Virus record (IMG/VR): IMGVR_UViG_2734482570_000004
Direction: 5' to 3' (one strand)
Length of the DNA stretch: 4,675 nucleotides
Source of the DNA: a virus
Lineage: Duplodnaviria > Heunggongvirae > Uroviricota > Caudoviricetes
In this document: positions 2,515 through 3,201 of the stretch, in pieces
How positions within the stretch are numbered: position 1 is the stretch's first letter
Layout: the number at the start of each line of letters is the position of its first letter
The notes under the pieces: model-generated
Database searches by the model: none
What the model was told of the DNA's origin: nothing
The model's input: only the letters and a program-made list of their open reading frames with translations
Program-made: the position numbers and the translations under genes

Positions 2515-3201
2515 ATGACCCCAATAAACATATTTATGACAGTTGCTGATTTCAAACGGCCCAAATTGGAGCTCCCAAACGGGGCAAACAAACTACTACT
2601 GCACTCTTGCTGTGCTCCATGTTCCGGTGAGGTGATGGAGGCGCTTCAGGCCTCGGGAATCGACTACACCATCTTTTTCTACAACCCGAACATTCATCCT
2701 CAGAAAGAGTATTTAATTCGTAAGGATGAGAATATTCGCTTTGCTGAACAACACGGCGTGCCGTTTATTGATGCTGATTACGACACAGACAACTGGTTTG
2801 AACGAGCCAAAGGAATGGAATGGGAGCCCGAACGAGGGATCCGTTGCACCATGTGTTTTGACATGCGTTTTGAGCGGACAGCGCTGTACGCCGCTGAAAA
2901 TGGTTTCAGTGTGATCAGCAGTTCACTGGGCATTTCACGCTGGAAAAATATGCAGCAGGTTAACGACTGTGGGCGGCGAGCCGTCGCGCATTATCCGGGC
3001 ATGGTGTACTGGGATTATAACTGGCGCAAGCAGGGCGGCTCGTCCCGTATGATTGAAATCAGCAAGCGCGAAAAATTCTATCAGCAGGAATATTGTGGCT
3101 GTGTGTATTCTCTGCGCGATACCAATCTACACCGCAAATCTCAGGGACGCCCTCTTATCAAAATTGGTCAACTCCACTACGGTAAAGAAGAGAAGGAGTG
3201 A
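2515..3201 (+). CDS. queH: Epoxyqueuosine reductase QueH-like protein (DUF208 family)
   Basis: 228-aa ORF with hallmark QueH motifs: [27 protein letters not shown], and C-terminal YCGCVYS. The start is uncertain: ATG 2515 and ATG 2536 are both possible and neither has a clear SD. Confidence 0.8.

Follow-up and report, generated by a model that had tools for sequence, protein, structure and literature searches.

A prophage-encoded QueH-like epoxyqueuosine reductase in the early-right region of lambdoid prophages of Escherichia coli

The stretch of DNA analysed here, hereafter the window, comprises 4,675 nucleotides of a virus record (IMG/VR IMGVR_UViG_2734482570_000004), in which a plus-strand ORF at 2515..3201 (228 aa, counted from the ATG at 2515) had been read in an earlier note as a prophage-encoded QueH-like epoxyqueuosine reductase. 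What would a single late enzyme of the queuosine (Q) pathway do in a prophage, and whom would it serve? QueH is a small iron-sulfur enzyme with a [4Fe-4S] cluster and an adjacent iron in an adenine-nucleotide-alpha-hydrolase-like fold, and the founding papers on it, the enzyme of Thermotoga maritima being an example, are those of Zallot (2017) and Li (2021). E. coli has no de novo cobalamin synthesis. The compound to be reduced, oQ, is made by QueA acting on preQ1-tRNA (PMC5699537; PMC10639084). Its reduction is cobamide-dependent in E. coli and Salmonella according to Frey 1988, as that work is cited in a passage of PMC5699537. The reaction of QueG is classified as EC 1.17.99.6 (PMC5372724), and QueH is the cobamide-independent alternative to the cobamide-dependent QueG (PMC6461909); Staphylococcus aureus possesses both enzymes, with different expression profiles (PMC13443448). 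QueG (yjeS in E. coli, dependent on cobalamin and a [4Fe-4S] cluster) thus performs the same oQ reduction as QueH, but its fold and cofactor are unrelated to those of QueH, and it belongs to the core genome of E. coli whereas queH is accessory there.

The assignment to the QueH/DUF208 family was borne out by a full-length match to Pfam PF02677 (QueH, formerly DUF208), which covered profile positions 1-174 of 175 with E=1.9e-65 and 220.6 bits, the gathering cut-off being 23.5 bits. The sequence of T. maritima QueH (PDB 7lc5) was matched with E=5e-22. In an alignment of 35 diverse QueH sequences, among them that of T. maritima, identity to the window protein ranged over 33-86%. Its invariant columns were C32, C33, N59, E65, R69, E106, R110, C111, C114, K144, Q191, C194, G195, C196 and S199 (numbered from 2515), and the window protein retains every one of them, all the conserved cysteine ligands included; the alignment was also repeated without T. 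maritima. Position C36 is a cysteine in at least 90% of the 35 sequences and is Asp13 in T. maritima, the window protein following the family norm, and the PDB contains T. maritima QueH mutants (C9S and D13N) at positions of this first motif.

An AlphaFold2 model built on the alignment had a mean pLDDT of 95.3 and a pTM of 0.91. When it was compared with the PDB by Foldseek, the top five matches (7lc5, 9d86, 7lc7, 9dco and 9deu) were all T. maritima QueH entries, the model superposing on that enzyme with a target-normalised TM of 0.92 and an rmsd of 1.3 Å; the next matches were TtuA-type tRNA thiolases with a TM of at most 0.5. The window protein therefore resembles T. maritima QueH in its full-length profile match, its fold and the motifs CCxPx, CxxC and CGC, but is only 30-33% identical to it, has the cysteine in place of Asp13, and bears short N- and C-terminal extensions that are common to other gammaproteobacterial QueH proteins, unlike the T. 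maritima enzyme. No NCBIfam model matched the protein, so the name QueH that RefSeq gives it must rest on other evidence. Judged by sequence and predicted structure, the ORF is an intact, genuine QueH, and every family feature that can be checked in silico is present; profile, ligand cysteines, fold and the lambdoid setting described below agree with the earlier designation as a prophage-encoded, QueH-like epoxyqueuosine reductase. A representative search also returned QueH domains 54-60% identical to the query that form the C-termini of proteins of 700-1,400 aa (P0125, P0128, P0135 and P0138), that is, fusions.

The four motifs quoted in the earlier note all lie in frame within the ORF exactly as they were given (Table 1), an observation that is genuine and well beyond chance. 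The reading frame and the end of the ORF also stand, but its start needs correction. An upstream alignment of four prophage copies showed that in the OHT76-1 copy (91% identical) ATT replaces ATG 2515, with an in-frame TAA after it. The four aligned copies all share the ATG at 2536, which is the start codon in all 84 copies examined, the N-termini of chromosomal QueH orthologues align to the methionine it encodes, and RefSeq places the start there in the near-identical FDAARGOS_944 record. A start at 2515 was accordingly rejected, and we take the true queH to be the 221-aa reading frame listed in Table 1.

Table 1. Position of queH, its motifs and adjoining features in the window
Feature	Position	Strand	Remarks
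DUF977/Ren-like protein	1531..1953	+	PF06163 (E=1e-33), phrog_142; last gene of the replication module
Left boundary of the DNA segment that accompanies queH	2465..2492	+	In most E. coli genomes similarity starts at 2465 (query position 66)
Candidate extended -10 element, TGcTACACT	2493-2501	+	Putative; ~35 nt upstream of the start codon
In-frame 5' extension	2515..2535	+	Part of the ORF in the earlier note; probably 5' untranslated leader, not coding
queH coding sequence	2536..3201	+	221 aa; WP_012421537.1-type RefSeq allele; predicted cobalamin-independent epoxyqueuosine reductase
HSCCAPCS motif	2602-2625	+	Cys25, Cys26, Cys29 (221-aa numbering), equal to Cys32, Cys33, Cys36 (numbered from ATG 2515)
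FYNPNIHP motif	2677-2700	+	N59 invariant; N57, I60 and P62 at least 90% conserved (numbered from 2515)
CTMC motif (CxxC)	2845-2856	+	C111, C114 and the preceding R110 invariant (numbered from 2515)
YCGC motif	3091-3102	+	C194, G195, C196 invariant, likewise the nearby Q191 and S199 (numbered from 2515)
hok/sok type I toxin-antitoxin locus	3226..3686	+	Context, not QueH function; 3226-3586 masked as N

The surroundings of the gene are those of a lambdoid early-right region. In order, the window ORFs encode an O-like/primosomal replication initiator, a DnaC-like helicase loader (PRK12377, E=8e-154), the DUF977/Ren-like protein, a zinc-ribbon protein, QueH, the C-terminus of Hok, a phrog_340 protein and a DUF1367/NinB-like protein. 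E. coli FDAARGOS_944 has a 99.9% identical stretch in a prophage that is integrated beside ybhA in the gal-mod region and carries genes for an integrase, an excisionase, Gam, RecE, cI/Cro-type regulators, lysis, terminase, head and tail. Window positions 1-85 do not align to this prophage, which is otherwise 99.5% identical, and a further mosaic boundary thus falls within the replication-initiator gene. At 3587-3686 the Hok C-terminus (…VTRKDLCEVRIRTGQTEVAVFVDYESRK) can be read, and where the window is masked the unmasked twin in FDAARGOS_944 has the 5' portion of hokD together with a sok RNA (RF01794, 117 bits). The masked run is 361 N long and the corresponding sequence in FDAARGOS_944 259 nt, a difference of 102 nt.

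Across prophages the slot is constant. The gene occupied the same position and was co-oriented in 84 of 84 loci, with shuffled flanking modules: a DnaC-like gene, DUF1627 in some, DUF977, the 137-aa ORF in some, queH, and usually hokD ~230-240 nt downstream, beyond which lies either a DUF968/RusA or an orf95/DUF1367 nin-type module. The DUF977 gene is found upstream in nearly all loci. The 137-aa ORF (1954-2367 in the window; phrog_1621, unknown function), which precedes queH in a subset of the prophages, encodes a protein that weakly matches a TFIIB-type zinc ribbon (CHH…C…CKIC) and whose C-terminus is basic and coiled. DNA similarity between most E. coli genomes and the window begins ~70 nt upstream of the queH start codon, and the gene is thus cargo with the usual lambdoid mosaic pattern. 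Like other lambdoid moron or cargo genes, queH sits between conserved phage modules and is variably present among related phages. A promoter and terminator of their own are the hallmark of morons; for queH our scans found no consensus ones, only the conserved TGcTACACT block. The prophage setting is further upheld by an isolated temperate phage, Escherichia phage HannyBb, whose protein has 96.5% amino acid identity and is the sole close copy among 50,697 deposited phage records. A search with PADLOC gave no defence-protein match for QueH or its neighbours.

We had suspected from a nearby iraM that the ST131 copy lies in a remnant at the icd/e14 site. This was ruled out, as the copy belongs to a full-length prophage beside ompW, and the iraM proved to be a homologue carried by the phage. 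That prophage contains, besides the iraM-like anti-adaptor gene (L179:11746-12048), a DNA methyltransferase, tRNA-Ile, tRNA-Arg, IS1 and ISEc52.

The closest non-identical relatives of the prophage protein are QueH proteins of other Enterobacterales with 79-92% identity (Scandinavium 92%, Kluyvera 91%, Enterobacter 89-90%, Erwinia 86%, Providencia 84%, Photorhabdus 80%; other carriers within this range include Serratia, Dickeya and Pantoea), and many other Proteobacteria have QueH proteins that are 75-82% identical. Seven chromosomal settings were inspected in detail. The gene adjoins tmcA, purC and dapA in Providencia and benE in Photorhabdus, lies between purL and glrK-glnB-hmp-glyA in Erwinia, and is found among non-phage chromosomal genes in Scandinavium, Kluyvera and Enterobacter; the 90% and 85% relatives P0001 and P0005 are also in a non-phage chromosomal setting. 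Lambdoid neighbours were present at one of 80 species-representative loci, namely the 99%-identical locus of E. albertii. Since the nearest relatives sit in chromosomal, non-phage loci, the sequence comparisons indicate that prophage queH is a captured enterobacterial housekeeping gene and not a phage invention. The chromosomal genes are near-identical to it in length and sequence, terminal extensions included, but reside outside phages, whereas the window copy lies inside a lambdoid prophage of a host that has QueG. Synonymous sites were saturated between prophage queH and the genes of the three genera tested, so the gene was not recently captured from those genera. These results also narrow the earlier statement that enterobacteria normally use QueG, which is accurate for E. 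coli but does not extend to the order, several of whose genera carry queH. In Enterobacter sp. ECC-175 (L103:3677-6669) queH is situated ~1 kb downstream of a gene with an icd-like N-terminus. Both e14 and phage 21 use icd as their attachment site, and this neighbourhood could be fortuitous or could indicate how queH came to be picked up by a phage.

The enzyme has no visible partners on the phage side. That the window holds no other queuosine gene, as had been observed before, was correct by Pfam, NCBIfam and PHROGs searches of its ORFs. The wider statement is based on two annotated elements: none of folE, queC, queD, queE, queF, tgt/dpdA and queA is annotated in the FDAARGOS_944 prophage from the integrase through the baseplate genes, or in positions 1-39,703 of the 45,272 of the HannyBb record. 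The prophage tRNAs have the anticodons CAU, UCU, UGU and UCC, none of the four being GUN, so that no Q-substrate tRNA is among them. As the phage has neither another Q-pathway gene nor a Q-substrate tRNA, the substrate of QueH would have to be host oQ34-tRNA, made by the Tgt and QueA of the host.

It had alternatively been proposed that the enzyme serves a nucleic-acid modification route, in which QueH would act on a 7-deazaguanine base in phage DNA and not on tRNA. QueH chemistry on a 7-deazaguanine substituent is conceivable, and many phages use preQ0-derived DNA bases (PMC6884629; PMC10516641). Phage DpdA and preQ0-synthesis clusters are indeed phage-borne and of the same queuosine/7-deazaguanine chemical family, but what is found here is a lone late-pathway tRNA enzyme without a transglycosylase or preQ0 synthesis genes, and the absence of DpdA/TGT, folE, queC, queD and queE from the window ORFs, the examined prophage and the stated portion of HannyBb leaves this route without support. 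The protein is, moreover, 80-92% identical to chromosomal tRNA-pathway QueH and shows no phage-specific changes. The only source of oQ known to us is QueA acting on preQ1-tRNA, and we know of no report of oQ in DNA. We consider action on phage DNA exceedingly improbable.

The reading we favour, to which we assign a probability of about 80%, is that the window encodes a functional QueH that was captured, now travels as prophage cargo, and would convert oQ to Q on host tRNAs without B12. According to this proposal, the gene was captured from an enterobacterial chromosome and travels in the slot between the replication/DUF977 genes and hok/sok, and its product would reduce oQ to Q at position 34 of tRNA-Asp, -Asn, -His and -Tyr with no need for cobalamin. 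An effect on the Q34 status of host tRNA, which the earlier note had raised, would be the best inference from the sequence. By analogy, queH would duplicate a host function with a different cofactor requirement, as MetE does for MetH (PMC6461909), and the prophage enzyme would most likely let the cell complete Q in this way when cobalamin is unavailable. Against such a benefit stands the frequent presence of cobamides in the gut. Catalysis in E. coli, the B12-sparing benefit and the timing of expression, in the lysogen or only after induction, are the parts of this picture that we infer.

The distribution of the gene and its mode of evolution bear on whether it has any selected function in E. 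coli. It is present in 1,013 of 5,426 complete E. coli genomes (19%, about one fifth), nearly always as a single chromosomal copy, and spans diverse lineages and prophage backbones; queH-bearing lambdoid prophages are found in E. coli and E. albertii. Relatives lie on 216 viral contigs of IMG/VR, the best 80 of them being at least 99% identical. Because queG is universal (5,426 of 5,426 genomes), prophage queH in E. coli is always a second oQ reductase. This full redundancy with queG in every genome, together with a GC content that resembles that of neighbouring genes and the many dispensable genes held by lambdoid mosaics, would suit a neutral passenger, a hitch-hiking chromosomal fragment without selected function in E. 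coli. However, pairwise Nei-Gojobori comparisons among four prophage alleles gave dN/dS values of 0.025-0.054 at dS of 0.15-0.45, and the ORF is intact in all 84 copies, which represent only six protein alleles. By these sequence measures prophage queH is under strong purifying selection. A ratio of 0.03-0.05 at dS as high as 0.45, no disruption among 84 copies and a prevalence of 19% across lineages and backbones argue against passive carriage, which we regard as very improbable.

The state of the window prophage itself is instructive in this regard. Its O-like/primosomal replication gene (window 1-763) has a +2 insertion in an A-run at 292-293 (A8, compared with A6 in FDAARGOS_944) and a 10-nt deletion at 430, and the two indels split it into three reading frames where FDAARGOS_944 has an intact counterpart of 262 aa. 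The prophage is, by its sequence, probably replication-defective. In addition, the end of an IS600 element (IS3 family; it spans ~4569-4675) cuts the DUF1367/NinB-like gene at ~4569, leaving an ORF of 131 aa versus ~199 aa for the intact form. Roughly half of the complete E. coli genomes contain IS600, with as many as 43 copies; an exact search of species-representative genomes for the DUF1367/IS600 junction gave no match. The queH of the window is nonetheless identical to a common intact allele, and an intact queH in a decaying prophage fits selection via the host, as a single case.

Whether host or phage would benefit depends on when the gene is expressed. Scans around queH found no full -35/-10 sigma-70 promoter by consensus and no convincing terminator, no Shine-Dalgarno sequence was detected ahead of ATG 2536, and an Rfam search at a permissive threshold revealed no riboswitch (such as preQ1) or other cis-element near the gene, the only Rfam matches being sok and four tRNAs. 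Since none of the consensus promoter, Shine-Dalgarno sequence and terminator was found, queH might be silent in the repressed lysogen and expressed only from the early-right transcript after induction. Were that so, the same enzyme could serve the phage: QueH made solely in the delayed-early phase would swiftly turn the oQ-tRNA pool into Q-tRNA and tune NAU/NAC decoding in late genes. The co-orientation of queH at every locus within the early-right operon, between the replication genes and the nin/antiterminator genes, the lack of a strong autonomous promoter or terminator in our scans, and the retention of queH by the viable phage HannyBb are all compatible with such a role. Against it, the intact gene in the decaying window prophage, with its broken replication initiator and IS600, is better accommodated by a benefit to the host, and an extended -10-like block lies upstream of queH. 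This TGcTACACT block does not vary among four copies with divergent flanks, and 84 of 84 copies contain it. We also know of no phenotype or decoding difference between oQ-tRNA and Q-tRNA, which speaks against tuned late decoding and makes the size of any benefit, to whichever party, uncertain. On balance we think a role confined to the lytic programme unlikely.

The favoured B12-independent conversion of oQ to Q could instead operate in the lysogen. Tentatively, and with some doubt, we suggest that queH is expressed there from its own weak extended -10 promoter and permits cobalamin-free completion of Q, with a measurable gain in fitness or decoding under B12 scarcity in ST131 and other lineages. 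Such an advantage, if true, would explain why queH is kept intact even in decaying prophages.

The identification as such is already known, since RefSeq uses the name "epoxyqueuosine reductase QueH" in E. coli and the family has been characterised. A literature search for prophage-borne QueH, whose reach did not include the two founding QueH papers, found no paper. Phage annotation lags behind: the HannyBb gene is called "hypothetical protein", and the corresponding PHROGs family, phrog_3217, is listed as "unknown function", so that phage pipelines based on PHROGs label the QueH family in this manner. The phrog_3217 profile covers the long ORF only from residue 41 onward, which suggests that in many phage genomes the gene has probably been called from an internal methionine and so lacks the cluster-binding CCAPC motif. 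In the window this residue, Met41, is encoded at position 2635, just after a GAGG-like sequence.

The enzymology of QueH is ordinary here, and it is the prophage context that is modestly interesting. About one fifth of sequenced E. coli carry, on a prophage, a B12-independent duplicate of a core B12-dependent step of tRNA modification, which constitutes a natural experiment. If the enzyme is active in lysogens, this would be a case of a temperate phage altering the tRNA modification state and the cofactor dependence of its host, and it would offer a handle on whether oQ and Q differ functionally.
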